From a virus (taxonomy: Duplodnaviria; Caudoviricetes): a stretch of 64,000 bases of DNA. The stretch lies in the IMG/VR virus record IMGVR_UViG_3300047275_000752, positions 1 through 64,000 of that record; one strand, given 5' to 3'. Both the position numbers and the translations under genes were made by a program. The stretch's first letter is position 1, and every line of letters starts with the position of its first letter. Below are positions 13,091 to 51,170 of the stretch, in pieces. The notes beneath the pieces were generated by a model that saw only the letters and a list, made by a program, of their open reading frames with translations, was not told where the DNA came from and made no database searches.

Positions 13091-13121
13091 TCGCGCCCAT
13101 TAGGCGTGATGCCTAGAAACA

Positions 13122-13871
13122 ATGTCTGAAGAAAATCTTCAACTGACTGATGACCAGCAATCACTTGAGATGAGTGGGTCTGGTGCCAATGAATCCTCTG
13201 ATCAAAACGAAGGTCGAAACTATTCAGAGGAAGAAGTTCAAAACCTGTTAAAGGCACTCAAGTCTGAACGGGAAACACGCAAGATTTACGAGAAGGAAGT
13301 AAAGGAAAAAAGTCAGCAGCTTGAAAAGTTTGCGCAAATCAATCCTGATGAATATCGCAAACTGCAAGAAGAAGCTGCTATCGCCGCCCGTGAAAAGGCT
13401 GCTGCAGATGAACGGACTGCACTTCTGGAGGAAAAATACGGCGCTCAAGCTGCAGATGCGATCAAGCAGCGGGATGAGAAAGCACGTGAGCTGCAAGAAT
13501 TCCGCAAGCGTTATGCACTTGAAAAGGTATTCTTCTCCGCTGGCGGCCGGACTGATTCTGCTGATGGCGTGTCATTTTTTGACATGTTAGCGAATCAAAT
13601 TGGTGGTCAATTCCGCCTTGAAGCTGATGGCAGTATCACTGTAGTTGATTTCCAAGGTGATCCTGTATTGGATAAAGATTCAGGTCGTCGCATTCAACCT
13701 GAAGACTATTTGAGTCAATTCAAGAATCATCCGATCTATGGCACCTTCTTCAAGGGCAACAAAGGATCTGGTGCTGGTATTGGCTATGGCGGGACTAATG
13801 CTACCGGCATGCCTGGGGAGGACCTGCATTCCTTGACTAGCGAAGAGCTTTTCCAGCGAGCTTTTGGTTAG
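13122..13871 (+). CDS. capsid scaffolding protein
   Basis: acidic N-terminus, long coiled coil, C-terminal GSGAG motif; immediately upstream of the MCP. Confidence 0.75.
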   Translation: MSEENLQLTDDQQSLEMSGSGANESSDQNEGRNYSEEEVQNLLKALKSERETRKIYEKEVKEKSQQLEKFAQINPDEYRKLQEEAAIAAREKAAADERTALLEEKYGAQAADAIKQRDEKARELQEFRKRYALEKVFFSAGGRTDSADGVSFFDMLANQIGGQFRLEADGSITVVDFQGDPVLDKDSGRRIQPEDYLSQFKNHPIYGTFFKGNKGSGAGIGYGGTNATGMPGEDLHSLTSEELFQRAFG

Positions 13872-13902
13872 TAATAGTTACAAAACTTAATAATTATCAT
13901 GT

Positions 13903-13928
13903 GAACCGGTATAAAACCCGGTTCTTTT
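13903..13928 (+). terminator. intrinsic terminator
   Basis: GAACCGG-N8-CCGGTTC followed by TTTT. Confidence 0.65.
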
Positions 13929-13939
13929 ATATTTATTTC

Positions 13940-14028
13940 GGTAGTCTAAGTCGAGTACCCAGCCCTGAGTTGGTTGTGATGACCGATCGGGGAGGGTCTA
14001 GCGCCAATGGATGAGACATCCTGGGGCG
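13940..14028 (+). promoter_or_regulatory. late promoter (GGTAGTCTA) and structured MCP leader
   Basis: motif at 13940-13948, then hairpins TTGGTTG-TGA-TGACCGA (13970-13986) and GGATG-AGA-CATCC (14009-14021). Confidence 0.6.
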
Positions 14029-14069
14029 ATTTACCTTTCCTGCCAAACGTTCACCAACCATAAGGAAAA

Positions 14070-14963
14070 ATGGCACTTACTCTTGCAGAAGCCAAAAAGC
14101 ATTCCAGTAATCCTCAGGAACTGGCTATTATCACTGAGCTTGCAGCCGGCCCCCTGCTGCAAAACATGCCCTTCCGTGAAGTCCAAGGCAACGGTCTTTT
14201 CTGGAAGCGCGAAGAGTCTCTCGGTGACGTGGGCTTCCGTGCTTTCAACGAAGGCTACACTGAGAGCTATGCTACTGTCAAGCAGCACAGTGAGGCACTG
14301 AAGCTGTTCGGTGGCGACATCAAAGTTGATCGCGCTATCATCGAGCTGGAAGGCCCCGAAGCTCGCGCCTATCAGATCCAAGCCAAGACTCGCGCAATGC
14401 GTCTGTCTTTCGAGGGTCTGTTCATCAATGGTGACTCGAACAGCAACTCTGCTGAGTTCGATGGTCTGGCTCGTCGTCTGCCTTCTGGTTCCAGCCAGTA
14501 CATCGCCAATGGTGGTGGCGCTCTGGATACCGGCAAGCTGGATGAAGCCATTGACGCTGTCGACGCCCAAGGCGGCCAGAAGTATCTGGTCATGTCTAAG
14601 TCTGCTCGTCGTCATCTGAGCAAAGTTGCTCGTGCCAATGGTCAAATCGATATCGAGCGTAACGATTTCGGCTATCAGCAACTGTTCTATGGTGGCATTC
14701 CGGTGCTTGAGCTGGATCGCGACCACCAGAACGTTGCTATTCTTGATGGTACCCCCAACAGCCAGTCGATCTATGTTGTTGCCTTTGGCAATGACCTGCT
14801 GACCGGTCTGCAGAATGGCGGTCCTCAAGTCCGTGACCTGGGTGAAGCTACTGATTCTCCCGTGCTGGTTACCCGCGTGGAATGGTATTGTGGCCTGGCT
14901 TTGATAAATGGCCGTGCCGCCGCTCGCCTTGCCGGTGTGGACGCTACCGCCGCTGTTACCTGA
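14070..14963 (+). CDS. major capsid protein (HK97-like)
   Basis: 297 aa after the scaffold; MALTLAEAKK, GGDIKVDRAI, FINGDS..EFDGL, RVEWYCGLA motifs; strongly biased codon use; followed by a terminator. Confidence 0.9.
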   Translation: MALTLAEAKKHSSNPQELAIITELAAGPLLQNMPFREVQGNGLFWKREESLGDVGFRAFNEGYTESYATVKQHSEALKLFGGDIKVDRAIIELEGPEARAYQIQAKTRAMRLSFEGLFINGDSNSNSAEFDGLARRLPSGSSQYIANGGGALDTGKLDEAIDAVDAQGGQKYLVMSKSARRHLSKVARANGQIDIERNDFGYQQLFYGGIPVLELDRDHQNVAILDGTPNSQSIYVVAFGNDLLTGLQNGGPQVRDLGEATDSPVLVTRVEWYCGLALINGRAAARLAGVDATAAVT

Positions 14964-14984
14964 TCAGTTGCCATTGTTTATCCG

Positions 14985-15006
14985 GGGTCCTGCGGGGCCC
15001 TTTTTT
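14985..15006 (+). terminator. intrinsic terminator
   Basis: GGGTCC-TGCG-GGGCCC followed by TTTTTT. Confidence 0.8.
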
Positions 15007-15015
15007 ATTGTTTAC

Positions 15016-15024
15016 GGTAAACTA
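15016..15024 (+). promoter_or_regulatory. putative late promoter (GGTAAACTA)
   Basis: 20 nt before GTG 15045. Confidence 0.65.
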
Positions 15025-15044
15025 ATCTAGTTGAAATTCTGGCA

Positions 15045-17872
<2,828 letters not shown>

Positions 17873-17876
17873 AACT

Positions 17877-18332
17877 ATGCCGGCCAATACAGCCCCTATT
17901 TTCACTGGAACTCCAAGGGTGTCAGGAGCCAGGATTACTACTGCTCAAAATAACTCACAAGGAAATGGCACCATTGGTACTGACATCTATCTCGCTTTCA
18001 GTCCTGGAGTTAATGGAAGTTACTTGCAAAAAGTAAGATTTACATTGGCAGGTGCAACGGCTAATACTGCATCTACTGCATGCGTGTTGCGAGTTTATTT
18101 ATCTACACAATCAAGTGGATCTACAACGTCTTCCAATACTTGGCTGATTCAGGAAGCTGCTGGGACGACTCAAACACCGAATGTCGTTACGACACTTTCT
18201 AATGCCACTTTCCCGATAGAAGTGCCATTAAATTTTGCGATTCCATCGGGATACAATTTATTGGTTGGATCAAGCGCAGTCACTTCCGCCAATACTGTTT
18301 GGACTGTTACAACTTATGGAGGTGACTATTGA
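17877..18332 (+). CDS. fibre-associated hypothetical protein
   Basis: 151 aa, Thr/Ser-rich, coupled to the collagen gene. Confidence 0.6.
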   Translation: MPANTAPIFTGTPRVSGARITTAQNNSQGNGTIGTDIYLAFSPGVNGSYLQKVRFTLAGATANTASTACVLRVYLSTQSSGSTTSSNTWLIQEAAGTTQTPNVVTTLSNATFPIEVPLNFAIPSGYNLLVGSSAVTSANTVWTVTTYGGDY

Positions 18333-18487
18333 TGGATGAAATCACAATCCGGCAAGTTCGATTTACAAGCGGTCTGATTGAATCTGGGTTTGTTCATGTC
18401 GACTCCAGTCATCAGATTGTACTGTTTACCGATTTAGCAGGAAACGAGCTATTAACATACGAGTCTTGGTATCCAGAGGATGAATAA
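18332..18487 (+). CDS. small hypothetical protein (51 aa, not in the ORF track)
   Basis: MDEITIRQVRFTSGLIESGFVHVDSSHQIVLFTDLAGNELLTYESWYPEDE; TGATG overlap upstream, abuts the next ATG. Confidence 0.6.
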   Translation: MDEITIRQVRFTSGLIESGFVHVDSSHQIVLFTDLAGNELLTYESWYPEDE

Positions 18488-19390
18488 ATGCTGGATGTAT
18501 TACATCTCCCCGGATCTGATAGGCACGTCTTCTATTTTCCTGGTTCAGAATCCAGTAGCGGCTGGCAAGCATGGGAAGTTCCTAGGTGGGCTTCGTTCTT
18601 GGATATTTTCTGCCTAGGAGCAGGCGGAAGCGGAGGGAATGGTTTCAGTTCAGCAACTACCACGACTCGCGGCGGTGGAGGTGGAGGTGGTGGTGGGTTG
18701 GCTGGCAATTCAGTTATTCCTGCTAGTTTCTTGCCAGATGTGTTGTATATTTTCCCTGGAGCAGGAGCCTTGGCTGCTAACGGGCAATCCTCGCATGTAA
18801 GCATGGCTCCTAGTACCGCCACCTTTTATTTGATATGTACAGGTGCGGGAGGGTTTGCTGGCGGAAATGGCCAGTCTGGATCAGGGGGAACAGCAGGCTC
18901 CGTCGGCAGTTCAACAACATTGGCAAATGTTGGCCAAGGCTTTCAAGGTTTTTTCAATTCGTATCGCAACATCACTAATGGAAACGGTGTTGCGGGAGGA
19001 AGCGCTACCGGAGGAAACGGGGGGTCTATAGGTGAGAGGCAAAATATTTCAACAGGAGGAGCCGGAGGAGGAGGTGGTGCAACTGGATCCGGGGGAAACG
19101 TGCAGGGATTTAACGCACGAATCGTCGATGACACCAATGTACCTTCGGGGAGTTCTGGTAATGTCAATAGCGTTGACGGGAAGGATGGAGCAAATGGCTC
19201 TACAACTTTGAGCCCTTTCTTCAGTAAAGGAGGTGCCGGTGGTGGAGCTGGTTTTGATGGGATTAACAGTGTTGGCGGTCGCGGTGGCGACGGAGGTTTC
19301 GGGTCTGGAGGAGGAGGTGGTGGTGCTGGAGTAACGGGAGGCATTGGCGGCCGTGGCGGAAATGGTTTAGTGATTATTACTTGTTGGTGA
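18488..19390 (+). CDS. glycine-rich fibre-like protein, paralog 1
   Basis: WQAWEVP, GAGGSGG.G and C-terminal GGNGLVIITCW. Confidence 0.75.
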   Translation: MLDVLHLPGSDRHVFYFPGSESSSGWQAWEVPRWASFLDIFCLGAGGSGGNGFSSATTTTRGGGGGGGGGLAGNSVIPASFLPDVLYIFPGAGALAANGQSSHVSMAPSTATFYLICTGAGGFAGGNGQSGSGGTAGSVGSSTTLANVGQGFQGFFNSYRNITNGNGVAGGSATGGNGGSIGERQNISTGGAGGGGGATGSGGNVQGFNARIVDDTNVPSGSSGNVNSVDGKDGANGSTTLSPFFSKGGAGGGAGFDGINSVGGRGGDGGFGSGGGGGGAGVTGGIGGRGGNGLVIITCW

Positions 19391-19395
19391 TCAGC

Positions 19396-20334: not shown

Positions 20335-20339
20335 AAAAC

Positions 20340-21233: not shown

Positions 21234-21419
21234 GTATTATGTTGTTATGTGTAGATAAAAGTTAGTGGTATCGACCGTTAGCCGGAAGGTGGCTGGCGCT
21301 TAGAAACCCCCCAGTAAATGATATCAGGTAGTGACTATTCGTCAATATAAACTGCCCTTATTGACTTAATTGTTGTTACAATGTAGACATCGAATTGCTG
21401 GCCATTGCTGGACTGTTAA

Positions 21420-23021: not shown

Positions 23022-23029
23022 GAAACCTA
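23021..23029 (+). promoter_or_regulatory. putative late promoter (GGAAACCTA)
   Basis: 19 nt before GTG 23049. Confidence 0.6.
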
Positions 23030-23048
23030 GCAAGATGCTGGCACCGCA

Positions 23049-26147: not shown

Positions 26148-26157
26148 CCTGCTTGCA

Positions 26158-26166
26158 GGTAAACTA
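26158..26166 (+). promoter_or_regulatory. putative late promoter (GGTAAACTA)
   Basis: 20 nt before ATG 26187. Confidence 0.65.
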
Positions 26167-26186
26167 ATTGAAGATTATCGCCTGGC

Positions 26187-27032: not shown

Positions 27033-27055
27033 CGTATTCACCTTCCTGATCAAAG

Positions 27056-35596: not shown

Positions 35597-36412
35597 ATGT
35601 TTAAGTCTTCGACTCAAGACGAGCTAACAGCATGGATGAATGCTGCTGGCAATCATAAAATCTTGGCTCCAGATGAAATTGATATTATCGCTAGGCAAAT
35701 AAAAACAGCGGAACCTGGGTCAGCCGAGCATGTGCGATTGGTTAATTATCTGACGATGCACAACTTGAGGCTTGTTATCAAGTTTGTCAAGAATTTCATG
35801 TCAGGTAAAACCAAGAAAAAGTATGGTTGCACTGAAACGGTGGACTACTTACAGGTAGGCACTCTTGGCCTTAGAAGAGCTGCTGAATGTTATGACCCGA
35901 CTCGTGGGTATAAGTTTTCCACCTATGCCTACCCATGGATTAGGTCATTTGTGAGCAGATACAACATGAAGGTGTCAAGTATTTTCCATATACCGGAAAA
36001 CGCACTGAGGGATGCATGGTATTACGAAGCTCATGGCCATATCAAAACTAAAACCAAGTCTGGGTTTAGGGATGAAGCTTACTGTATTGAACTTAGGGAC
36101 AAGGTGCGAGCTGCTCAATCGCCAGTATCTCTGGATCTTAAGGTTGGCGACGACGAGTCTATCCCCCTTGGCCTGACGATTGAGAGCACTTACCCAGAGC
36201 GCACCAGGGAGGGTGAATTTCCATTGGAAATTGAAGACATGATCGATGCGGCTGGACTGACAAAAATGCAAAAAGAAATCATAAAGGCCTTTTACCTGCA
36301 AGACATTGACATGGAGCAACTGGCTAAAGCCTATTCAGTTACTAGAGATAAGATTAAATCTGTGAAAGAGTCCGCGATCCAACGCCTCAGAATGGCCAAT
36401 GGATTGGTATAA
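35597..36412 (+). CDS. RNA polymerase sigma-70 family factor (RpoD/group 2-like)
   Basis: region 1.2 KILAPDEI; region 2 HNLRLVIK..DYLQVGTLGLRRAAECYDPTRGYKFSTYAYPWIR; region 4 HTH. Confidence 0.88.
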   Translation: MFKSSTQDELTAWMNAAGNHKILAPDEIDIIARQIKTAEPGSAEHVRLVNYLTMHNLRLVIKFVKNFMSGKTKKKYGCTETVDYLQVGTLGLRRAAECYDPTRGYKFSTYAYPWIRSFVSRYNMKVSSIFHIPENALRDAWYYEAHGHIKTKTKSGFRDEAYCIELRDKVRAAQSPVSLDLKVGDDESIPLGLTIESTYPERTREGEFPLEIEDMIDAAGLTKMQKEIIKAFYLQDIDMEQLAKAYSVTRDKIKSVKESAIQRLRMANGLV

Positions 36413-37331: not shown

Positions 37332-37334
37332 GCC

Positions 37335-37577: not shown

Positions 37578-37581
37578 ATCA

Positions 37582-38344: not shown

Positions 38345-38366
38345 TGAAGTACGCGCTAGTTAAAAG

Positions 38367-39206: not shown

Positions 39207-39415
39207 TGACTCAAAACAACAGTAATGTGTCCAGTGCTAGTATGGGATTTAGTGGATGGCTTACCATCTTATTCATAGGCCTGAAACTGACGGGTTACAT
39301 TAGTTGGCCGTGGATCTGGGTGTTGTCGCCATTATTGATTTCGCTTTCGTTGCTGCTGACCATACTCCTTGTCTGCCTGTTAATCATCGGACTCATTAAA
39401 CTGACCGAGAAATGA
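39206..39415 (+). CDS. small membrane protein
   Basis: LTILFIGLKLTGYISWPWIWVLSP, a widespread phage TM motif. Confidence 0.7.
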   Translation: MTQNNSNVSSASMGFSGWLTILFIGLKLTGYISWPWIWVLSPLLISLSLLLTILLVCLLIIGLIKLTEK

Positions 39416-40164: not shown

Positions 40165-40207
40165 TTCGATTCATGATATATTGGTATAATAGTTAGCACT
40201 TGGCGAG

Positions 40208-40837
40208 ATGCCTGCTGTGTCGGAATGGCGAGAAGCTAAACCTCCCAAACGTGAGGCTGGTCCTATTTACAACTTTAGGCGCGGCTATGATCTAGAAGCG
40301 GCTAAAATGCACGAAAATGCTGAGCAGTATGCTTGTTTCCAGAAATACTTGATGATTCAAGGTGCTAGAAGCTTGAACGAACTGGAAAGATTAACAGATC
40401 ATAGCTCGAATACGCTTTCAAATTGGAGCAAGACTTTTGAATGGGAGAAGCGTGCTGTCGAGTACGACAAGAAACAAATGGCTATTGTATGGCGGCAGGC
40501 GGAAAAATTGCACAGAAATAAGCACAAAGAAGCCATTGTTCAGTTTAGGGAATCTTCTGAACGACAGGCAAAAATGATGTCAAAGGTCTCGGAAGACCTG
40601 ATACGTCTTCTGGGTGATCGGATACTAAGGGCGGAGGAACAAAACGAAGAAGTTCCAATGAATCTAGTGTCTGGGCTGCTTCGTGCGGCAGCTTCTATCA
40701 CGGAACAATCTCGCCAGTCTTGGGCCAATGCTTTAGGCATCAATCAGATGATGGAAATGGTCGAAGCTGAAATGCAAAATCTTACAGTCGAAGACGTTAC
40801 TGACGTTGATGCCTATGAGATCCCGATCGATGAATGA
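40208..40837 (+). CDS. putative terminase small subunit
   Basis: ENAEQYACFQKY...RSL...WS..FEWEKRAVEYD HTH followed by a helical region; upstream of TerL. Confidence 0.6.
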   Translation: MPAVSEWREAKPPKREAGPIYNFRRGYDLEAAKMHENAEQYACFQKYLMIQGARSLNELERLTDHSSNTLSNWSKTFEWEKRAVEYDKKQMAIVWRQAEKLHRNKHKEAIVQFRESSERQAKMMSKVSEDLIRLLGDRILRAEEQNEEVPMNLVSGLLRAAASITEQSRQSWANALGINQMMEMVEAEMQNLTVEDVTDVDAYEIPIDE

Positions 40838-41018
40838 GTCACCTGAAGATAATAAGTTTCCGATGACCGTAACGGAAACTGAAGACGGTGGTTTTATTAT
40901 TGAGTGGGATGGGAGTCATCCTGTTACATCGATATTCAATGAATGGACTGAACAGGATTTCATAAACATGTTAGACTTAGCATGTAGAGATGCATTGGAA
41001 CCGGAGATAGACAAGTGA
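40830..41018 (+). CDS. small hypothetical protein
   Basis: VTETEDGGFIIEWD..P..S.FNEWTEQDF. Confidence 0.6.
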   Translation: MNESPEDNKFPMTVTETEDGGFIIEWDGSHPVTSIFNEWTEQDFINMLDLACRDALEPEIDK

Positions 41019-42514
41019 CTGATCGAATCAGTAAGAGGTTGATCGAGCAAGCCGCCTCCGATCGCCAAATGGTTCGTGAGCTTAAAAGAATAAAAACACA
41101 GAAGAAAGAAGGCGGCCAACAGGTAATACTGCATAAATTTATCAAACAAGTAGCATCAAGCTACAAGTTCTATCGTGTACACGCAGAGCTTACTAAGCAA
41201 TTGCAACGAATAGTAGACGGTGACTGTAAGCGTCTAATTATTCAAATTCCACCTCGTACGGGCAAGAGCTACCTTTCTTCTAAGCTGTTCCCAGCGGCTT
41301 ACCTGATGGCACACCCAGACAGGTACGTTGGCATAGTTTCGTATAGTGCTGAACTTGCCGAAGGCTTCTCTAGATCGGCCAGGGATTATTATCGACAGGC
41401 TGGCGGCACTTTTGACCCGTATAAACAGGCTGTCAATGACTGGGGAACCCAGGGAGGCGGTGGCTTGTGGGCAGCCGGTGTTGGAGGTGCTATTACTGGC
41501 CGCTCAGGTCACCTGCTGATCATTGACGACCCCGTCAAAAACAGGGAGGACGCAGACAGTCCAAGGATCATGGAAAAGCTTTGGGACTGGTATACTTCAA
41601 CATTGTACACACGACTCGAACCACAAGTTGGTGCAATTGTCGTATGTCAAACACGTTGGAGTGAGAATGATTTGATTGGTAAGCTGCTTGAATCGGAGAT
41701 GAATGTCTCAGAAAAAGGCAGGGAGCATTGGACTATACTTGACCTGCCTGCAATATCAGAAGATCCAGGCTCCAGGCCTCCATTGCCATCTCATTGTGAA
41801 GTAATAGAAGATTGGAGACAGGAGCCTGGTCTTGCGTTATGCCCTCAGCGATATGATATAGATGAATACGAGCGGATCAGAGAAGCCATTGGCGCCAGGG
41901 ACTTCGCTGCACTCTTCCAGCAACGCCCTGCCCCTCAAGGTGGTAACATGTTTGATCCAAACTGGTGGGGCTACTATGACCACTCTAGTACATTGCCTGA
42001 ATTCCAGCGCATAATGTTAAGTGTTGACTGTACATTTACAAACGCAAACACTAGCGACTATGTCGTTGGCTCTGTGATTGCTCAAGCCGGTAATTCTTTC
42101 TATGTACTAGATCTTGCACGTGAAAAGACTGATATAATGGGCACTATGGCGATGATATCAAGAATGCATAACAGGCATTCTCTTAGCGGAACGATAATTG
42201 AATTAGCTGCATCTGGTTATGCTGCATATCAAATCCTATCAAAGAAAATTCCAGGGATGATAGGCTTCAAGCCCGAGAAATCAAAAGTGGCAAGAGCAAC
42301 AGGTATTGTGCCGGTAGTTGAGGCTGGAAATGTTTATCTGCCGGCGAGTGCACCCTGGCTGGATGCTTTCATAAATGAATTTAGCTTATTCCCGGCCGCA
42401 AAGAACGATGATATAGTTGATTCCATATCAATGGCAATCAATTATATGACGCAAAGGTCTGCTCCGGCGATGACGGAGGTAAGCTGGGGTCGCGGTATAC
42501 CGTTGCCTTATTAG
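41015..42514 (+). CDS. terminase large subunit
   Basis: Walker A IPPRTGKS, Walker B LLIIDDP, nuclease SVDCTF and KNDDIVDSISMA. Confidence 0.93.
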   Translation: MTDRISKRLIEQAASDRQMVRELKRIKTQKKEGGQQVILHKFIKQVASSYKFYRVHAELTKQLQRIVDGDCKRLIIQIPPRTGKSYLSSKLFPAAYLMAHPDRYVGIVSYSAELAEGFSRSARDYYRQAGGTFDPYKQAVNDWGTQGGGGLWAAGVGGAITGRSGHLLIIDDPVKNREDADSPRIMEKLWDWYTSTLYTRLEPQVGAIVVCQTRWSENDLIGKLLESEMNVSEKGREHWTILDLPAISEDPGSRPPLPSHCEVIEDWRQEPGLALCPQRYDIDEYERIREAIGARDFAALFQQRPAPQGGNMFDPNWWGYYDHSSTLPEFQRIMLSVDCTFTNANTSDYVVGSVIAQAGNSFYVLDLAREKTDIMGTMAMISRMHNRHSLSGTIIELAASGYAAYQILSKKIPGMIGFKPEKSKVARATGIVPVVEAGNVYLPASAPWLDAFINEFSLFPAAKNDDIVDSISMAINYMTQRSAPAMTEVSWGRGIPLPY

Positions 42515-42516
42515 TA

Positions 42517-43146
42517 ATGGCTCGAAAACCATTTGATTTCAAGCTCACGCCAGATCAGCAAAAAATGGCGATAGCCAATATTAACCTGGCAAGACGCGAA
42601 GCCTGGAGGATACAGCGGACTACTGGCATAGAATATTCTGTTCTGGAGGGTGCAGCCTTCCTTGGCCTATGCAAGGCTTGCAATAGATATGATCCTGATT
42701 CTGGTTACAAATTCTCCAGTCTTGCTACACCAACAATCAGGGGCGAGCTTTTGCATTGGGTAAGGGATAGGACTTATGCAATGAGATTGTCCCACAAAAT
42801 GAGGGAAAATTGGATAAAAGGACGCAGGATGATCTTTGATGGTAAAAGCGATATAGAAGTATCAGCATTTCTCGGGATAACATTGCAAGAATGGCAAGAA
42901 GTCCGCTCTGCGTGTTCTGGACCACCTCTCGAACTAAAGGATCAGGCAATGCCGTCAGACCCCTTGGAACCAGAGGAGTTTGATTTTAAAAATGATTACA
43001 GAGAAATAGCTGAATCGATAATCGAAGAAATGTCAGAAAAAGAATACGACGCGCTATTGGCTTATTACAAAGGAGACGCGTCAAAGGCCCCATTACGAAT
43101 CTTTAATTCATTGTGTAATTCTCTGAGGAAAAGAAAAGTTTTGTAA
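42517..43146 (+). CDS. RNA polymerase sigma factor, SigF/SigB-like (group 3)
   Basis: ANINLARREAWR..LEGAAFLGLCKACNRYDPDSGYKFSSLATPTIRGELLHWVRD. Confidence 0.85.
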   Translation: MARKPFDFKLTPDQQKMAIANINLARREAWRIQRTTGIEYSVLEGAAFLGLCKACNRYDPDSGYKFSSLATPTIRGELLHWVRDRTYAMRLSHKMRENWIKGRRMIFDGKSDIEVSAFLGITLQEWQEVRSACSGPPLELKDQAMPSDPLEPEEFDFKNDYREIAESIIEEMSEKEYDALLAYYKGDASKAPLRIFNSLCNSLRKRKVL

Positions 43147-43210
43147 ATTGGTTGCCACCCACCGATCCCATGCCTAAGATCAGTCAGTACCTTAGCAGTA
43201 GCCACGGCTT

Positions 43211-44800: not shown

Positions 44801-44801
44801 G

Positions 44802-45026
44802 ATGTCAGAATCTAAATACATTGTTTACACCAAGGACGGGTGTCCTTTTTGTAATCAGGCGAAAGGTTTACTTGAATATTACAAAGTCCCGTATGAATTG
44901 GTTTACGATAAGTCGCCTGACTGGGAAACCTATCCCTGTATTTATAAAGTAAATACGCAAGGAGACAAGGAGCTAATAGGCGGATTTTCTGAATTGGCTA
45001 GCTACTCCTATTTGCATGGACTATGA
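44802..45026 (+). CDS. glutaredoxin
   Basis: YTKDGCPFCNQAK..IGGFSEL. Confidence 0.85.
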   Translation: MSESKYIVYTKDGCPFCNQAKGLLEYYKVPYELVYDKSPDWETYPCIYKVNTQGDKELIGGFSELASYSYLHGL

Positions 45027-45273
45027 GATCATGTCACCAGCAATCCAGGCTTACCTCATCGTAATTGCCGCCTTTGTCGTCTTGTTCCCTGTTGACGCCA
45101 GTAATGGCGTCACTCTGGTGTGGTTATGGCTGCTGACCAGGGTTCTTAATTACTATTTAATGTTTAGGGCGTACATGATGTACCTCCGGCTTAGGTCTGA
45201 CTTTGCTAAACTAGGTATGCCGATGCCGGCATTCAAGTTCGTTCCCATCTGGGAGAGAAATGGCAGCAACTAA
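45016..45273 (+). CDS. small membrane protein
   Basis: hydrophobic N-terminal half; ends FVPIWER. Confidence 0.55.
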   Translation: MDYEIMSPAIQAYLIVIAAFVVLFPVDASNGVTLVWLWLLTRVLNYYLMFRAYMMYLRLRSDFAKLGMPMPAFKFVPIWERNGSN

Positions 45274-45406
45274 AAAGCTTAACAAAAAGACACTCTCAGG
45301 CAGCCTGGGACCGATTGAGCACGTCGGCAAAAAGACAACTCAAGGCAATGGATCCCGCTCGAAGCCGAAGAAAAACAGGAAAAAGTATAAGGGGCAAGGT
45401 AAGTAG
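45260..45406 (+). CDS. small Lys-rich basic protein (48 aa, not in the ORF track)
   Basis: MAATKKLNKK...KTTQGNGSRSKPKKNRKKYKGQGK. Confidence 0.65.
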   Translation: MAATKKLNKKTLSGSLGPIEHVGKKTTQGNGSRSKPKKNRKKYKGQGK

Positions 45407-45408
45407 AT

Positions 45409-45747
45409 GTGAAACGTTTTGTTCCTTTGCAATCGCCAAGGAATGCTTACCTGGTTAAATCCCTAGTAGCAGAAGGTCGATGCGTTAGTGCAGTAAAATA
45501 CTTGTATGCACTACGCAGATTCAGCATGGTCGACTGGTTAGTCGCCATTAGCCAACTACTGAGGATGGCTGAAAAGCCAAATGAGCTGAATACTTATGCG
45601 ACCCTAATAGAGGTATCAAAGGGTTCTCTTCTTGACCAGAAGGCTCATCTAGTGCCAGGGTTGGCAGCCGATCTGCATGGAAGGAAATTTGACTATGAGC
45701 ACTGCTTGCTTTTGATTAAACAGATCAGATCTGATCGCGGCTTTTAG
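45409..45747 (+). CDS. hypothetical protein
   Basis: 112 aa, fills the gap before nrdJ. Confidence 0.5.
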   Translation: MKRFVPLQSPRNAYLVKSLVAEGRCVSAVKYLYALRRFSMVDWLVAISQLLRMAEKPNELNTYATLIEVSKGSLLDQKAHLVPGLAADLHGRKFDYEHCLLLIKQIRSDRGF

Positions 45748-45748
45748 C

Positions 45749-45757
45749 GGTAATCTA
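45749..45757 (+). promoter_or_regulatory. GGNANNCTA motif (GGTAATCTA)
   Basis: 20 nt before the nrdJ ATG. Confidence 0.55.
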
Positions 45758-45777
45758 TCCTTGCATCCAAAATCACA

Positions 45778-48700
45778 ATGACCGAATTCAATCAGTTCGC
45801 CCCATCTGCCCATGCTGTCTTTTATCGCTCGTATTCGCGACGCAAAGAAGATGGTTCCAGGGAAAACTTTGCGGAATCAATAACCCGGACGATTAATGCT
45901 ATTGCGAAAGTTGGTAAATTTACCTCTTCGCAAACTGCTTTAGCACTTGAAATGGCGTTAAAGCAACACTGCTTTCCTAGTGGACGAGCACTTTGGGTGG
46001 CTGGTACTGAATGGTCAGAAAAACCTGATAATTTTCCTGGTTATTATAACTGCTGTTCCATGCATGTTGATGAGCCCTCAATGTTTGGGTTGCTCATGGA
46101 GCTAGCGATGATGGGCACAGGTACTGGCGCAGTCCTTGAATCGGATGTCGTAGCAAAGCTGCCAGCAATTACCAGGGCTATCAACATCATTGATATAATT
46201 GATAACCAAGGCGTCGAAGGTGGTAAAGCTGATACTGTAATCACCTATGAAGAAGAAGATCAAATTATTTACCTGACAGTTGGCGATTCTCGCCAAGGCT
46301 GGGCTTCTGCTTATCAGGGCTTGATTGAACTGGCAATGGGCAATCTGGCTGATGGCGAATCTGCTGCAGATGATATAAACATTATCCTCGATTTATCTGA
46401 AATCCGTCAAGCCGGACAATTACTGAAAGGATTTGGTGGTACTGCAAATCCAGTCAGACTGCAAGAAACCTTCGAGAGGGCGGCCAGGATCCTGCTTAAA
46501 GCAAAAGGTCGTAAGCTAACAGCAATTGAATGCTGTCTATTGATCGACGAGGCGGCCAGCGCCGTTGTCGCCGGCAACATTCGTCGTTGTTTACCAGGCA
46601 ATGCCCTCGTTCACACTGAACTAGGTCTTGTGCCAATTCGTGATATCAAGATTGGCACAATGGTGCAAACCTCGAAGGGATTGCGCCCTGTTGTCGACTT
46701 TTTTGATCAAGGCAAGCAGGTTATTTACGAAATCAAAACACAAGACGGAAGCCTGTTTTGCTCGAAAGAGCATAAAGTAGCTGTACTGCGCGATATTTAT
46801 GGTGCGTATGAAATGGTCAAGGCAATTGACCTTAAGGCCGGTGATCGAATGGTTGGTAACCATTTGATTGTCGCTGGTCACAGTACCAGCTTACCGGTTG
46901 CTGCTAATACGAAAGCAAATTCACGCAAGCCTCGCAAGCCAATAACTATTCCAAAACTAGATAAAGAAGTTGCCTATTTCCTTGGTTATTTACACGGTAA
47001 TGGCAATGTTAAATCAGACGGTAGCGGTATTCGTATAACTGGACCCAGTGGTTTTGAGGCTATTGCCACCAGATGTTCTAGTGTGCTTCAGCGATTTGGG
47101 TTTGATTCACGTCTTGTCAGCAAAAGCGATGCCTCGGCGTGGGAATTGACAGCGAATGGATCTGAATTAAATGCTTACTTCCGTAATTTTAAGCAAGTAT
47201 TTTCGCAACCAATTATCCCTGATTGCATTCTCCAAGGGACAGAAGAAATCCGCTGGCATTACCTGGGAGGCCTGATGGATTCCGATGGTTCACCTGGTAC
47301 TCATGTCCTGTTGAATTCTGTGTATCCGGAATTCAGTCATCAAATTCAAGCTATTTATAGCTCTCTTGGAGTTCCGACTCGCATCGAAAAGCGTCTCCGT
47401 AAAAATAATCATGAATGCGAGCTGAATGCAGTCGGTCTGCATAAGCAGAAGATCTATCAAGTATTTTCAAGCATTTGCACTCGTTATCCCTGTCTTGCAA
47501 CTAAACCATCTGACACCAGCAGGAATCAGCATGGGTTCGATAAAGAAATGGTGAAAGCCAGCATCAAAGGCATCAACTGGAGCCAATGCCAGGCCCAGAA
47601 GAGTTGTGTGTCGCTTGCTGCAATCGAACCAGCAATGACTGATCTTATTCCAATTACAGTAATTGATGTACAACCTACATCGCGTATCGAAGATACATTC
47701 GATATTGAGGTCAAAGATATCCACGAATTTTATTGCAATGGCTATCTTGTTTCGAATTCAGCGGGCATGCGTCAATTTACGTCAAGCGACGAAGAGGCAG
47801 CTTCTGCCAAGGATGGTCTGTATAAGCAAGACGAGAGCGGAAACTGGAGCGTTGATCCTGAGAAAGAAGCACTCAGGATGGCTAATCATACTAGATGCTT
47901 CCACACTAAGCCGGATCACGAAACAATTAAAGCTTCTATTGAGAAGCAGTTTTGGTCTGGTGAGGGCGCAATTATGTATGTGCCCGAATCTATTGCCAGG
48001 GCCAATGCCGACCTGCTAAATACCAAGCAGTTAAAGCAGCGGTTCCTGGGGCTGTATACACGCAGTCAAGATGACGCTCGTCAGATGTTGGTGGAGCTAG
48101 CAGAAAAGGCTGGTGAGCCGACTGATGATCGCATCATTCAGCATCGGATGGATCGGTATGGGCTTAACCCCTGCTTTGCGCCAGGCACTATTGTGATGAC
48201 CAGTGAAGGCTACTTCCCAATTGAATCACTGGTTGGCAAAACTGTTGAGATTCATGATGGGAATGAGTGGCGTACTATTGACAACTTCCGAGTTACAGCG
48301 CATGACCAAGATGTATACGATGTAACCTTGCATGACGGAACTGTCATTACAGCGACTGAATACCATAAATTTATCCTGAAGGATGGCACCAGGGTAGAAC
48401 TGAAGGATCTAAAGCAGGGCGACGAGTTAATGGCAGCCACTATCGAGCCCGTGACGGGAACTATTCAGGCACATGCCGCCTACCTTAAAGGATTTCTAAT
48501 TGGCGACGGAACGTCTGACAAGGGTCAGCGAGCAGCCTGTAAGTTGTATTCTCCCAAGAAAGTATGCGTCGACCGTCTGAGGGCTTCTAGGAACGAGCTG
48601 GGGTATTTTGAAGGTGAAACACTAACTCCGGCCGGGTATTTGCGTGGTTTAAATACCGCCAATGAAGACATGACTCCGTGGTCATCTACATACAAGCATG

Positions 48701-50280
48701 TATTTCCTCACGAAGTACTGAATTGGACGACTGAGGCCAAAGGCGAGTTTATTGCCGGATTGTTTGACGCAGACGGCACTCTTCGTGACACTAAAGAGAA
48801 CGGCTTTTCTTATCAGATCACTAGCGTTAGTCTTGAATTTCTGCGCGGTCTAGTGACCTTGTTGCGAACGGTTGGAATCGGGGCAAAAATTGGCCCTCCG
48901 CGACAAGGTGGCCTTAAAAACTTTGGCGCCGATCGGGGTGGCGTTTGCGTGGTCCAGCCTACTTATCGTCTCGCTATTTCACAGTTCAATTCAATTAAAC
49001 TAGCTAAAATCGCAAAATTTGAAAGATTAAAAAGTGTTGCTGACAAAGAAATTGTTTATATCAAAAAACTCGGTTATAACAAAGTAAAAGAAATTACTTA
49101 TTCTCATTGCGCACCCGAGGTTTATTGTTGCACTGTTCCCGTAACGAACTCTTTTACACTTGGTTCGTCGATAGTTGTTGCGAATTGCGGAGAGATAATC
49201 ATGCGAGACAATCTTTGCAATCTTTCGGAGGTTCACCTGAATACACTGGATCCAGTCAACAAGGAACTGCAACACCAGGTATTCTATGCCGGCGGCCTGC
49301 AAGTCGCTGCACTGCTGCAACATAAATTTGTCCCCGAACGCCTTGCTTATAGCCGTGAGAACGATCCAATTGTTGGCGTCAGTTTTACTGGCCTGTTTGA
49401 CTTTTTTGTTCATGCTTTTGGTGCCTCTTGGCTGAAATGGATGATGAAAGGCAGGCCCAGTGGTTCTGCATACAAAAAGTACACTGCCAAGGAAAAAGCC
49501 TTCTTGGAATCATGGAGGATCAGCGCGGAGCAAGGTGTTAAGGATTACTGTGCTCAACACGAGATTCGTCTCCCTAATCGATTCACCACTGTGCAGCCAG
49601 CAGGCTCCAAGAGCTTGCTGACAGGCGCATCATCTGGCTGGCATCCTCCAAAGGCTCAGCGATTCATTCGTCGAATCACGTTTGGGGTCAACGATCCACT
49701 GGTTAGCGCTCTCAGGGATTATGGTTACAGTGTTATCCCAGCACAAAGCGCGAGGGACGAGGAGGGCAACCTGCTTGATGATATTACAGATCCTAGGGTT
49801 CGCGAAGTCTTGGTGGAAATTCCAACTGAAGTATCTTGGGCGAATCTCCCTGGATGTGATGAGTTTGACTTGAGCAAGCTACCTGTCACTGCTCAGTGGG
49901 GACTGTATATGCAAGTCCAAAAATATTATACAACGCATAACACATCGGCCACTCTGGAATTTCGTGAAAATGAAATAGATGAATTGACTAGTCTAATTTA
50001 TCAAGACATCCAGTCCGATGGTGGCTATATATCGGCAGCACTACTTGCTCGATTCGATGCCAATGAAACTTTCCCGAGGTTGCCGTTTGAGCCAATTGAC
50101 AAACAAACTTTCGATCGTAGAATGGCTGTAGTTAAATTAGTCCGGGATAGCCTGCCGGAGGGCACCACAATGCTTGATTTGCTTTCAAGATATGACAATC
50201 CTGGCTACGAGTTAAAAGGGGCTGCTGGCTGTGACTCAGACAAATGCCTTGCCGAGGAAAAAGTGCCATTCAGTAAATAG
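45778..50280 (+). CDS. nrdJ: class II (B12-dependent) ribonucleotide reductase containing two inteins
   Basis: FPSGRALWVAG, AGNIRR|SAG, NP|CGEI, TTVQPAGSKSLL, HNTSAT; about 772 aa after splicing. Confidence 0.93.
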   Translation: MTEFNQFAPSAHAVFYRSYSRRKEDGSRENFAESITRTINAIAKVGKFTSSQTALALEMALKQHCFPSGRALWVAGTEWSEKPDNFPGYYNCCSMHVDEPSMFGLLMELAMMGTGTGAVLESDVVAKLPAITRAINIIDIIDNQGVEGGKADTVITYEEEDQIIYLTVGDSRQGWASAYQGLIELAMGNLADGESAADDINIILDLSEIRQAGQLLKGFGGTANPVRLQETFERAARILLKAKGRKLTAIECCLLIDEAASAVVAGNIRRCLPGNALVHTELGLVPIRDIKIGTMVQTSKGLRPVVDFFDQGKQVIYEIKTQDGSLFCSKEHKVAVLRDIYGAYEMVKAIDLKAGDRMVGNHLIVAGHSTSLPVAANTKANSRKPRKPITIPKLDKEVAYFLGYLHGNGNVKSDGSGIRITGPSGFEAIATRCSSVLQRFGFDSRLVSKSDASAWELTANGSELNAYFRNFKQVFSQPIIPDCILQGTEEIRWHYLGGLMDSDGSPGTHVLLNSVYPEFSHQIQAIYSSLGVPTRIEKRLRKNNHECELNAVGLHKQKIYQVFSSICTRYPCLATKPSDTSRNQHGFDKEMVKASIKGINWSQCQAQKSCVSLAAIEPAMTDLIPITVIDVQPTSRIEDTFDIEVKDIHEFYCNGYLVSNSAGMRQFTSSDEEAASAKDGLYKQDESGNWSVDPEKEALRMANHTRCFHTKPDHETIKASIEKQFWSGEGAIMYVPESIARANADLLNTKQLKQRFLGLYTRSQDDARQMLVELAEKAGEPTDDRIIQHRMDRYGLNPCFAPGTIVMTSEGYFPIESLVGKTVEIHDGNEWRTIDNFRVTAHDQDVYDVTLHDGTVITATEYHKFILKDGTRVELKDLKQGDELMAATIEPVTGTIQAHAAYLKGFLIGDGTSDKGQRAACKLYSPKKVCVDRLRASRNELGYFEGETLTPAGYLRGLNTANEDMTPWSSTYKHVFPHEVLNWTTEAKGEFIAGLFDADGTLRDTKENGFSYQITSVSLEFLRGLVTLLRTVGIGAKIGPPRQGGLKNFGADRGGVCVVQPTYRLAISQFNSIKLAKIAKFERLKSVADKEIVYIKKLGYNKVKEITYSHCAPEVYCCTVPVTNSFTLGSSIVVANCGEIIMRDNLCNLSEVHLNTLDPVNKELQHQVFYAGGLQVAALLQHKFVPERLAYSRENDPIVGVSFTGLFDFFVHAFGASWLKWMMKGRPSGSAYKKYTAKEKAFLESWRISAEQGVKDYCAQHEIRLPNRFTTVQPAGSKSLLTGASSGWHPPKAQRFIRRITFGVNDPLVSALRDYGYSVIPAQSARDEEGNLLDDITDPRVREVLVEIPTEVSWANLPGCDEFDLSKLPVTAQWGLYMQVQKYYTTHNTSATLEFRENEIDELTSLIYQDIQSDGGYISAALLARFDANETFPRLPFEPIDKQTFDRRMAVVKLVRDSLPEGTTMLDLLSRYDNPGYELKGAAGCDSDKCLAEEKVPFSK
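46588..47757 (+). mobile_element. intein 1 with LAGLIDADG homing endonuclease (390 aa)
   Basis: N-term CLPGNALVHT; YFLGYLHGNG and YLGGLMDSDG; C-term FYCNGYLVSN followed by Ser. Confidence 0.92.
48172..49185 (+). mobile_element. intein 2 with LAGLIDADG homing endonuclease (338 aa)
   Basis: N-term CFAPGTIVMT; YLKGFLIGDG and FIAGLFDADG; C-term SIVVAN followed by the catalytic Cys of NPCGE. Confidence 0.92.
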
Positions 50281-50317
50281 CCGGCTATAATGGGGGTGCC
50301 ATGACACGGTAGTTGGC

Positions 50318-50599
50318 TTGCCGGCAGACAAGGGTCTCTTTACCCACCCAGCGTGGGCCATCCCCGAGAAAGACCATTCACACTATGGTCCAGATGTCCA
50401 GATTGCCCTGACCGCCTTCAGGGGAGCCTGGGCATCTTATATTTCCATGACGAAATATGATTTTGGTGATGATTCTCAAAATATGAGGACCACTGCCATG
50501 CAAGAGTTATGGAACAGCATAGCTAGAGCAAGAAAAGCAGAGACGGGAACTGGATTCTATTTAAATCAAAAGGAGTACAAAAATGTCAACGATCGTTGA
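50318..50599 (+). CDS. hypothetical protein
   Basis: TTG start; TATAAT at 50286; overlaps dcd. Confidence 0.45.
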   Translation: MPADKGLFTHPAWAIPEKDHSHYGPDVQIALTAFRGAWASYISMTKYDFGDDSQNMRTTAMQELWNSIARARKAETGTGFYLNQKEYKNVNDR

Positions 50600-51095
50600 T
50601 TTCCAAATAGAAGCCCTAGCGCTGTCAGGTCTACTGGTACACCCTTTCCGGGCTGATCAAGTGAATCCGGCTTCGTACGATGTCCGGCTCGCCGATAAAA
50701 TATTAGTAGAAACACCAGAATACGGGTGGGTAGAGCGGGGGCTTCCGTACTTATTAGAACCTGGGGAATTTGTGCTTGGTAGTACTCAGGAATGGTTGAA
50801 TGTTCCTGAGGACATGGAGGCATTATTTCAGTTAAAGTCATCACGCGGGAGGGAGGGCTACGAACACCTGCTTAGCGGATACATTGATCCAGGTTTTTCT
50901 GGCCGGGTCACTTTGGAGTTAGTGAATGTAAATAGATACAATGAACTACCTCTATTCACTGGAATGCTAATCGGCCAGATTAGATTTATCAAGACAGATG
51001 CACCATGTAGGGCCTCGTATGAGCTAAAAGGTCACTACCAAGGAGATGACACTGTGCAACCATCAAAAGTAAGCGCAGACGGCTTGCTTCGTTAG
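50583..51095 (+). CDS. dcd: dCTP deaminase
   Basis: VNPASYDVRL, LEPGEFVLGST.E, KSSRGREG..YIDPGFSGRVTLEL, YQGD. Confidence 0.92.
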   Translation: MSTIVDFQIEALALSGLLVHPFRADQVNPASYDVRLADKILVETPEYGWVERGLPYLLEPGEFVLGSTQEWLNVPEDMEALFQLKSSRGREGYEHLLSGYIDPGFSGRVTLELVNVNRYNELPLFTGMLIGQIRFIKTDAPCRASYELKGHYQGDDTVQPSKVSADGLLR

Positions 51096-51101
51096 GCAGA
51101 A

Positions 51102-51170
51102 GGGCATCGTTCTGGGAATCCTAAGAGAGCCATTGGCGTGACGCCGGCAAGTTCTTAGGCGCGATGCCCC
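51102..51170 (+). promoter_or_regulatory. late promoter (GGAATCCTA, 51115-51123) and structured portal leader
   Basis: hairpins GGCG-TGA-CGCC (51135-51145) and GGCG-CGA-TGCC (51158-51168); GGGCATCG (51102-51109) is complementary to 51162-51169. Confidence 0.6.

Follow-up and report, generated by a model that had tools for sequence, protein, structure and literature searches.

What do the short capped hairpins that precede head-assembly genes in a freshwater cyanophage have in common, and what could they do? The phage, a dsDNA siphovirus, is known from freshwater DNA metagenomes only. For the window, the whole 64,000-nucleotide (nt) stretch analyzed here, an original prediction had placed five hairpins in the leaders of the scaffold, major capsid (MCP), and portal genes. 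On direct re-reading, all five (5/5) were found at the coordinates given for the whole window, and each of these three leaders does carry a hairpin. Three copies were added, one in the scaffold gene and two at the small-terminase gene terS (phrog_6299 in PHROG), which joins the gene set. The features are the following.

13082–13090, + strand: scaffold promoter box GGCATACTA, inside TAGGCATACTA, which is kept upstream of scaffold in 40 relatives
13100–13116, + strand: scaffold hairpin U, TTAGGC-GTGAT-GCCTAG, ending 5 nt 5' of the ATG at 13122; in the MFE fold
13161–13177, + strand: scaffold hairpin D (added copy), TCACTT-GAGAT-GAGTGG, in the coding region (codons 14–19); in the MFE fold
13903–13924, + strand: intrinsic terminator at the end of the scaffold unit, from the terminator scan
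13940–13948, + strand: MCP promoter box GGTAGTCTA
13957–14041, + strand: structured core of the MCP leader, ACCC(AGCCC), hairpin 1, GGGGAGGGU, hairpin 2, ACCUUUCCU (alignment A1, 42 sequences)
13969–13987, + strand: MCP hairpin 1, GTTGGTT-GTGAT-GACCGAT (A1, helix 2; double changes in 5 of 6 pairs)
14009–14021, + strand: MCP hairpin 2, GGAT-GAGAC-ATCC; in the MFE fold
14984–15001, + strand: intrinsic terminator at the end of the MCP unit, from the terminator scan
40183–40191, + strand: box-like GGTATAATA upstream of terS, where there is also a TATAAT −10 match
40202–40212, + strand: terS hairpin 1 (added copy), GGC-GAGAT-GCC, containing the ATG at 40208; an in-frame GTG (40217) lies 4 nt downstream of the hairpin
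40226–40238, + strand: possible terS hairpin 2 (added copy), TGGC-GAGAA-GCTA, in the coding region
42517–43146, + strand: phage SigF-like (group 3) sigma factor gene (phrog_36098; Pfam Sigma70_r2)
51115–51123, + strand: portal promoter box GGAATCCTA, conserved upstream of portal leaders
51133–51147, + strand: portal hairpin A, TTGGC-GTGAC-GCCGG, starting 9 nt past the box (alignment A3, helix 1)
51158–51168, + strand: portal hairpin B, GGC-GCGAT-GCC, ending 2 nt 5' of the ATG at 51171

The stems are short, and such a motif could be an accident of composition. Hairpins fitting a loose G-NGA-Y pattern (stem of at least 4 pairs, G-U allowed) number 31 in the window and 28.4 ± 5.4 in dinucleotide shuffles; window-wide there is no enrichment. 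The original prediction was to fall if the pattern proved equally frequent elsewhere. The loose pattern is indeed at chance level over the window, but it is concentrated at the head and packaging genes. The form GGCGNGAYGCC occurs four times in the window, always on the + strand, with none on the reverse strand and none in the backwards-read control; with at most one mismatch there are 13 matches, against 4.8 ± 2.4 expected. In the 72.4-kb genome, 8 of 32 relaxed hairpin matches are intergenic, compared with an intergenic share of 8%, and placement is non-random. One hairpin, at genome position 65746, was set aside as a chance match: it may fall in coding sequence, it has no box, and the ORF downstream is not homologous to the S-CBS2 gene with a similar feature.

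The promoter box GGNANNCTA, found 32 times on the + strand and 6 times on the − strand, brings out this placement. Twenty-one genes are preceded by a box. The scaffold, major capsid, small terminase, and portal genes carry two hairpins each, and the remaining 17, which are tail, lysis, and replication genes, carry none. Such a partition, 4/4 head or packaging genes versus 0/17 others, is one arrangement in 5985; that the element avoids tail-gene leaders had been correctly noticed in the original prediction. The GGNANNCTA/TAGGCATACTA box resembles the SigF elements TAGGC and GGTAA of Synechocystis (PMC2532724). It is probably read by the SigF-like sigma factor, of which a clear homolog was found in 4/4 complete relatives tested. 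The phage encodes sigma factors of its own. Under a SigF-type −12 assignment of the box (PMC2532724), the first portal or scaffold hairpin would lie at or near the predicted 5' end of the message. Among relatives, the first hairpin follows the box by 5–15 nt (mode 6) in portal leaders and by 9–16 nt in scaffold leaders.

About 50 relatives of this phage carry the element, including the Prochlorococcus phage P-SS2. P-SS2 and S-CBS2 have the same layout as the window, and hairpins lie on matching genes in S-CBS2, P-SS2, and the genomes G003–G007, except that the terS copy is missing in G004 and G007. At 53 nonredundant MCP loci, matches accumulate at just two places, the MCP leader (78) and the scaffold start (69), over a background of about 1 match per 100-nt bin; the minus strand yields 28 matches versus 199. 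In the MCP leader, 15 control loop classes give 0–10 matches each and the GNGA class gives 80. The relatives also define the cap. Its G1, G3, and A4 are invariant, and N2 may be A, C, or U, with a single G among 304 hairpins. The cap had been described as always G-N-G-A-Y, which holds in the window but not in relatives: position 5 is U in 162 of the 304 hairpins, C in 94, A in 33, and G in 15, hence a pyrimidine in 256 (84%). With G1, a variable N2, a purine at position 3, and A4, the signature is GNRA-like, and yet GNAA caps are nearly absent. A hairpin upstream of a 123-aa gene in G003 and G004 has G at N2 and, being atypical, was not counted.

Conservation and covariation in relatives had been named as the test of the prediction. 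Both are present in the alignments of the MCP (A1), scaffold (A2), and portal (A3) regions, which comprise 40–44 distinct relatives per gene. For scaffold, 90.4% of cells are paired versus 30–45% when the alignment is slid, with 111 double-change cells versus 32 in shuffled data. The corresponding values are 84.6% versus 34–53% and 117 versus 45 for MCP, and 86.3% versus 18–56% and 51 versus 20 for portal. The stems differ in sequence yet stay paired, as originally noticed, through compensatory changes. In addition, stem pairs include 277 G·U versus 40 A·C, an asymmetry that points to selection on the + strand (sense) RNA. Compensatory changes and the invariant G, G, and A of the cap bear out a structure-conserved sense-RNA element, and on this comparative basis the capped hairpin is a real conserved element despite the chance-level frequency of the loose pattern. 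That the hairpins are chance inverted repeats, or dsDNA palindromes for a DNA-binding protein, could be argued from the short stems and from that frequency. This reading is already contradicted by the comparative data, namely positional enrichment, covariation, and a seven to one excess of G·U over A·C. For a DNA operator, moreover, the opposite is expected, whereas here sequence varies and pairing is kept; we regard it as extremely improbable.

The same asymmetry bears on the promoters of phage N4, which are DNA hairpins with a 5–7 bp stem and a 3-nt loop with a central G, read by a giant virion RNA polymerase (vRNAP). The hairpins described here resemble them in stem and loop shape, with a central G, upstream of genes. 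However, both strands of an N4-type hairpin should pair equally, which the G·U and A·C counts contradict by pointing to RNA. No giant virion RNA polymerase gene is present, the largest ORFs being the tape measure (1885 aa) and RNR (1500 aa), and loop-to-start distances range from 1 to 55 nt instead of keeping one fixed initiation distance. No Rfam 15 family, a comparison suggested with the original prediction, matches the hairpins; at gathering score only two tRNAs are found in the window, and scanning three leader regions by E-value yields nothing above noise (E ≥ 1). None of the GNGAY hairpins was matched as an intrinsic terminator in the terminator scan, and no U run lies 3' of them.

The original prediction had also evoked boxB, a short stem with a GNRNA pentaloop in which the A at position 5 pairs with G1, bound by the N protein. 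The likeness to the nut sites of lambda and P22 is that of a short stem with a five-base GNRA-like loop in the 5' part of phage transcripts. A boxB- or put-like signal in the nascent transcript, modifying RNA polymerase by antitermination or pause control at late promoters, would fit a GNRA-type pentaloop just past the promoter, as in nut sites, and sigma factors encoded by the phage. The resemblance proves to be an analogy only. The cap is G-N-G-A-N5, mostly GNGA plus a pyrimidine, with the invariant A at position 4, not 5. No boxA (CGCUCUUA-like) match with at most one mismatch occurs on the + strand of the scaffold, MCP, terS, and portal leaders. The boxB hairpins belong to early operons and are read by a small phage protein; those described here are on late head genes and abut start codons, and no N-like protein turned up: about 45 ORFs scanned against Pfam and PHROG include no arginine-rich N-type match, short ARM peptides being hard to detect in this way. 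A spacing of 1–2 nt from the start codon and a copy in a coding region would have no role in antitermination. Furthermore, a terminator closes both the scaffold and the MCP unit and a new promoter follows each, leaving no need for read-through there. We consider a signal of this kind quite improbable.

As expected of translational operators, the portal, scaffold, and terS hairpins abut or overlap the initiation region, in line with the operator-like role originally proposed; the MCP copies are distal. In portal leaders, 53 of 60 bear hairpins (7 do not), and in 41 of these 53 the last hairpin stops just short of the ATG, at a distance of 1 nt (31 leaders) or 2 nt (10 leaders). Helices 2 and 3 of A3 covary. 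The scaffold ATG lies between two hairpins, the first 5 nt upstream and the second about 40 nt downstream of it. Hairpin U (A2, helix 1) is 95% paired with double changes in 5/6 pairs, and hairpin D (helix 2) is 86% paired with double changes in 6/7 pairs. The residues encoded at hairpin D vary among relatives (LEMS, PETG, SEMD) while the helix is kept. The terS leaders were compared in six complete genomes, a peptide-pattern scan of IMG/VR having recovered no terS relatives. A hairpin matching terS hairpin 1 exists in S-CBS2, G003, and G005 and not in G004 and G007, and is thus missing from 2/6; canonical boxes occupy the terS position in S-CBS2 (GGTAAACTA), G003 (GGCATCCTA), and G005 (GGCATACTA). 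The possible second terS hairpin has a weak counterpart only in G005 and is the least certain part of the set.

The two MCP hairpins begin about 24 nt past the box, behind a conserved ACCC segment, and lie about 50–80 nt upstream of the start in a larger folded leader with an AGGA-type ribosome site of its own. Hairpin 2 (A1, helix 3) is 88% paired with double changes in 5/6 pairs. In the core, a central GGGUG has two possible partners, ACCC upstream (83% paired) and CACCC downstream (89.5%), and A1 contains no compensatory changes that decide between the two pairings. An anti-SD switch, in which a pyrimidine tract pairs with the AGGA, looked good in the window and in L012, L035, and L039, but was rejected on the overall mean (z = −0.14); several relatives' MCP leaders have no SD. 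Likewise, masking of the portal start by pairing of GGGCATCG (51102) with CGATGCCC (51162) was discarded, as the 5' arm is not kept in the nearest relative, L079. These hairpins are short and not all appear in single-sequence MFE folds: MCP hairpin 1, the terS pair, and the portal pair are absent, a swapped A/B pairing being preferred for portal, and the fold energies of the terS (z = −0.5) and portal (z = −0.1) regions are unexceptional.

Since the hairpin is common to the scaffold, capsid, portal, and terS messages, these dispersed head-assembly genes are most likely under one common post-transcriptional control acting through it. We lean toward the hairpins being a shared, putative translational operator for one trans-acting factor. 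In this scheme, head and packaging units are transcribed separately, each from a SigF-type box, and each is marked by a pair of hairpins in the stretch that runs from the predicted 5' end to the first codons. Recognition of G1, G3, and A4 in the GNRA-like cap would fall to a predicted trans-acting factor, probably encoded by the phage, and the distance from hairpin to start codon would set the effect on translation initiation. In portal leaders this distance is 1–2 nt, and the terS hairpin covers the ATG or lies 4 nt 5' of the alternative GTG. Repression would be the likelier direction of the effect. What is established here is the hairpin structure, with its conservation, its sense-strand bias, where it lies, and which genes carry it; the transcription start, a binding factor, the effect on translation, and the originally proposed balancing of portal:scaffold:capsid output by one phage protein are inferences.

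A cis-acting role in message stability or processing appears unlikely. Here the stem-loop, with its nuclease-resistant GNRA-like cap, would shield late head mRNAs from RNases that depend on the 5' end (RNase E/J), or mark a processing site, with no dedicated binder. The proximity of the first hairpin to the predicted 5' end under the SigF-type reading of the box (PMC2532724) would suit such a role, and each unit is monocistronic with its own terminator, so that message stability would set output. This leaves unexplained the portal hairpins immediately before the ATG, the scaffold copy in the coding region, and the MCP copies well past the box. A protective element would also tolerate GNAA or UNCG caps, whereas GNGA alone is used (80 vs. 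1), and the hairpin is lacking from 17 further late genes that share the promoter.

A module made of RNA alone is, in our view, improbable. The GNGA(Y) caps would dock as GNRA-type loops into helical receptors, either the tandem C-G pairs of the MCP ACCC/GGGU helix or rRNA, and would thereby fold the leader or recruit the 30S subunit to the mostly SD-poor starts. The GNRA signature of the cap fits such docking, as do the conserved C-G-rich helix adjoining both MCP hairpins and the portal, scaffold, and terS starts, which have no evident SD. However, no conserved receptor-like helix was found in the scaffold, portal, and terS leaders. In addition, the free variation of N2 excludes base pairing of the loop to a fixed RNA partner for most copies, including pairing with the 3' tail of 16S rRNA (AUCAC), N2 being U in only about one-third of hairpins.

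Returning to the trans-acting factor of a shared operator, several candidates were considered, and none emerged as the binder. A DUF3155 protein (60347–60721) was rejected as the common factor because its gene is missing in S-CBS2, S-CRES2, and S-CRES3, which all have the motif. The leader of the DUF3155 gene has a GNGAY hairpin at 60299–60313. A 117-aa Trp/Arg-rich protein (52920–53273) is encoded directly after the portal gene throughout the clade; its distribution in isolated phages is that of the clade and therefore does not discriminate it as the binder, and its structure model is only weakly like known folds. The scaffold protein has, as read from the sequence, an acidic N-terminus, which makes direct RNA binding by this region less likely. 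As a tentative extension, the hairpin might label, like an address, the mRNAs of a head-assembly regulon. One factor, an unassembled head protein or the 117-aa protein, would couple portal, scaffold, capsid, and terminase translation to the assembly state of the procapsid, or would co-localize their synthesis.

The portal, scaffold, capsid, and terminase proteins of a tailed phage are made in very different copy numbers, and to our knowledge little has been established about how the phage matches them. The comparative evidence defines a compact RNA element, ready for mutation, on four dispersed head genes. Its presence in culturable phages, namely P-SS2 (Prochlorococcus MIT9313), S-CBS2 (Synechococcus CB0204), and S-CRES1–3, makes the question of morphogenetic control directly testable. 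An undescribed RNA motif and a structured capsid-gene leader of about 100 nt, both tied to a SigF-type late promoter, are thereby added to the sparse catalog of cis-regulatory RNAs of dsDNA phages. If the regulon reading is true, no RNA operator for morphogenetic feedback would have been defined earlier in tailed dsDNA phages, and this one would be common to marine and freshwater cyanosiphoviruses.

In their survey of IMG/VR, Fremin et al. (2023; PMC10690425) list candidate csRNAs, predicted computationally, of which five precede major capsid genes and others precede terminase genes. Going by their descriptions in that text, these concern PHA00201-type capsid genes and a putative large terminase (psiM2_ORF9), not terS, and the descriptions include no hairpin shared by four head genes. 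The RegA, gp32, and gp43 operators of T4 are similar in that one phage factor represses several mRNAs at initiation regions, but RegA binds unstructured, AU-rich sites of early or middle genes, whereas we describe a structured hairpin on late morphogenetic genes. The coat-protein operator at the replicase start of MS2, Q-beta, and PP7 links synthesis to the supply of capsid protein. It too is a small hairpin located at a start codon or enclosing one, loop-specific and free in stem sequence, but it is a single site in ssRNA phages, with other loops and a bulged A, whereas the dsDNA siphovirus studied here has some eight copies spread over four mRNAs. For the autoregulation of the P22 scaffolding protein, we know of no RNA operator that has been defined or mapped. 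That regulation (Wyckoff and Casjens 1985, J Virol 53:192; cited in PMC2115188) is also a post-transcriptional control of a head-assembly gene and is thought to sense unassembled protein. In P22 the protein is known without an RNA element, whereas here an RNA element is defined, and it reaches the capsid, portal, and terS genes.

The window DNA is that of a freshwater cyanosiphovirus. It covers the first 64 kb of a 72.4-kb IMG/VR virus record, 100% complete according to CheckV, and the stretch is present only in DNA metagenomes from freshwater, aquaculture, and drinking water. The closest isolated relatives are the Synechococcus phages S-CRES1-3 and S-CBS2, which are ~70% identical to it in nucleotide sequence across scaffold and capsid, and also the Prochlorococcus phage P-SS2. 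The main features are as follows:

13122-13871, scaffold
13903-13924, intrinsic terminator, end of the scaffold unit
14070-14963, major capsid protein (MCP)
14984-15001, intrinsic terminator, end of the MCP unit
35597-36412, RpoD-like sigma factor
40208-40837, small terminase (terS)
41015-42514, large terminase
42517-43146, SigF-like sigma factor
51171-52670, portal

Two tRNA genes lie within 60068-60229 on the minus strand. The RNR ORF (45778-50280) encodes 1500 aa versus 766 aa in S-CBS2 and gives three separate RNR-profile matches with a helicase-like match between them, which suggests that it holds at least one inserted element (inteins).

The five hairpins of the original prediction, one before scaffold (13101-13115) and two each before MCP (13970-13986, 14009-14021) and portal (51135-51145, 51158-51168), were all recovered at exactly these positions. 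The loose form (G-NGA-Y, stem of at least 4, G-U allowed) is by itself at chance level, with 31 occurrences on the plus strand versus 28.4 ± 5.4 expected from dinucleotide-preserving shuffles. What exceeds chance is the form GGCGNGAYGCC, with four copies on the plus strand and none on the reverse strand or in the backwards-read control, together with the placement of the hairpins. The fourth of these (40202-40212) coincides with the start of the packaging gene terS, which the predicted set did not include. Eight of the 32 relaxed matches in the whole genome are intergenic, though intergenic DNA represents 8% of the genome. Among the 21 genes preceded by a promoter box, scaffold, MCP, terS, and portal have exactly two hairpins each and the remaining 17 have none, a split corresponding to one arrangement in 5985. 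Hairpin placement is non-random. The hairpin-free genes include major tail, tape measure, tail fiber, endolysin, and RNR; this agrees with the original prediction, in which no hairpin was noticed in tail-gene leaders. Another GNGAY-capped hairpin (AGCCT-GCGAT-GGGCT, 60299-60313) is found 33 nt upstream of the gene for a DUF3155 protein.

The sequence of the box is GGNANNCTA. The plus strand of the window has 32 boxes and the minus strand 6 (573-56290; e.g., 1794, 10888, 15016, 23021, 26158, 28991, 29291, and 45749); in S-CBS2, the numbers are 38 and 5, respectively. In hairpin-free genes, it is usually found 19-25 nt 5' of the start codon. The box variants TAGGCATACTA and GGTAAACTA are similar to the TAGGC (-32) and GGTAA (-12) elements of the Synechocystis group 3 sigma factor SigF (PMC2532724). 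Clear homologs of the phage SigF-like sigma factor exist in 4/4 complete relatives. Transcription would start a few bases 3' of the box, provided that the latter is a -12-type element. The first hairpin follows the box by 5-15 nt in portal, 9-16 nt in scaffold, and ~24 nt in MCP units. A plain 5' stabilizer of the mRNA would account for such promoter-proximal hairpins, but this explanation is unlikely, as it leaves unexplained why some copies lie close to start codons or within coding sequence, why GNGA is used exclusively, and why 17 other late genes have no hairpin. Directly 5' of the scaffold box, a 33-codon ORF (12967-13068) encodes a Lys/Arg-rich peptide; no counterpart was recovered from five complete relatives.

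We fetched 67 loci around MCP homologs and 80 around portal homologs from IMG/VR. In 53 non-redundant MCP loci, hairpins with a GNGAN cap and at least 4 outer pairs form only two peaks, one within the 100 nt preceding the MCP start (78 hairpins) and one at the scaffold start (69 hairpins), over a background of ~1 per 100-nt bin; 199 are on the plus strand versus 28 on the minus strand. In the MCP leader, GNGA gives 80 matches versus 0-10 for each of fifteen control loop classes. Stem sequences vary among relatives, with pairing retained, and the covariation sought in scaffold, MCP, and portal leaders was seen in all three alignments. For scaffold (40 sequences), 90.4% of cells are paired versus 30-45% with the 3' partners slid, double-change cells number 111 versus 32 in shuffles, and 11/13 pairs covary. 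The corresponding values are 84.6% versus 34-53% and 117 versus 45 for MCP (42 sequences), and 86.3% versus 18-56% and 51 versus 20 for portal (44 sequences). Because the aligned sequences are related, the counts from shuffles do not represent probabilities; sliding the register preserves relatedness, and the outcome of this control is equally clear. Stems contain 277 G·U pairs versus 40 A·C oppositions, which indicates that the selected structure is in the sense-strand RNA and not in duplex DNA or an antisense transcript. The layouts of scaffold and MCP recur in P-SS2, and the element thus spans marine and freshwater phages of Prochlorococcus and Synechococcus.

We examined the cap in 304 leader hairpins, with G1, G3, and A4 fixed by the search definition. 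The second position is A, C, or U, and G once only; the fifth is U in 162, C in 94, A in 33, and G in 15. The GNAA alternative is almost unused. The cap has the signature of a GNRA-type fold in which the second base is free and one base is added on the 3' side. The notation that suits it best is a GNGA(Y) pentaloop; it can also be described as an NGA triloop, with G-Y as the closing pair in ~84% of copies.

The layout differs between transcription units. The second scaffold hairpin (TCACTT-GAGAT-GAGTGG, 13161-13177) is in the coding region, so that the ATG has a hairpin on each side; this copy is conserved, and its stems covary while the encoded residues vary (LEMS, LETS, PETG, SEMD, and others). 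Two or three hairpins are present in 52 of 60 distinct portal leaders. The distance from the end of the last one to the ATG is 1 nt in 31 leaders and 2 nt in 10. The terS hairpin covers the ATG at 40208 and lies 4 nt upstream of an in-frame GTG. In S-CBS2, the terS start reads GGTAAACTA, 8 nt, GGA-GTGAT-TCC, agtc, ATG; two complete relatives (G003 and G005) are similar, and two others (G004 and G007) have no hairpin there. Both MCP hairpins are inside a conserved structured leader of ~100 nt (13957-14069), in the order ACCC, hairpin 1, GGGUG, hairpin 2, CACCC plus a pyrimidine tract, and an AGGA/AGGU-type ribosome site. The central GGGUG can pair with either flanking ACCC (83% or 89.5% paired). 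The two helices exclude each other, one enclosing hairpin 1 and the other hairpin 2, a layout that looks switch-like; compensatory changes favoring one partner were not found in the alignment. In this clade, the tract ACCUUUCCU can pair with the AAGGAAA ribosome site. In S-CBS2, gp037 (L006, the MCP locus, 1951-2427; HNH endonuclease in RefSeq) is inserted between scaffold and MCP, with the MCP box and leader intact 3' of it.

Single-sequence minimum-energy folds include both scaffold hairpins and MCP hairpin 2 but neither MCP hairpin 1 nor the two terS hairpins. For portal (51128-51170), a swapped pairing (A-5' with B-3', A-3' with B-5') replaces the hairpins because both share the GGCG/YGCC stem in this phage; such a swap is impossible in relatives whose two stems differ. 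Thermodynamics thus backs the hairpins partially, and the case rests on comparative evidence.

A shared translational operator for one putative trans-acting factor is the best fit to four features taken together: the loop is invariant, the stems are free to vary, each mRNA has two copies, and the spacing to start codons is tight. This factor would read the hairpins and control translation initiation. An RNA-only docking role is less likely. Portal is present in 12 copies per virion and MCP is needed in hundreds. The layout may be graded with the required protein amount: hairpins on the portal and terS starts, adjoining the scaffold start, and far 5' of the real ribosome site in MCP. The window phage and five complete relatives have 28 genes in common. 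The most striking shared uncharacterized protein (117 aa; 52920-53273, just 3' of portal) is basic and Trp/Arg/Cys-rich, and all relatives, P-SS2 and S-CBS2 (gp092) among them, retain it with 50-82% identity. It is under purifying selection (third-position differences ~2x those at other positions), with 18 invariant residues in 35 sequences. It has no Pfam or PHROG family, and a protein atlas search found nothing. AlphaFold models it as a small beta-rich domain (mean pLDDT 77), which matches SH3/KOW/Tudor-like barrels weakly (Z ≤5) and has no clear match among solved structures. We consider it a candidate only for the hairpin-binding factor. The DUF3155 protein was excluded as common factor, its gene being in some relatives only.

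No Rfam 15 family matches the hairpins in the comparison that had been proposed. The P-SS2 genome paper mentions a group 3 sigma factor and no hairpin or stem-loop, and a 2023 IMG/VR survey includes, among its candidates, unnamed RNAs 5' of some capsid and terminase genes (PMC10690425). The predicted analogy with boxB holds for the look of the element, a boxB-type pentaloop, but not for the defining features of that system. Antitermination of this kind is unlikely, since boxA is absent from the leaders, every unit is served by a promoter and a terminator of its own, and the hairpin-ATG spacing would be purposeless. The element also differs from the N4 hairpin promoters in their defining features. 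In its operator-like action, it may instead be likened to phage translational operators, those of the MS2 coat protein and T4 RegA.
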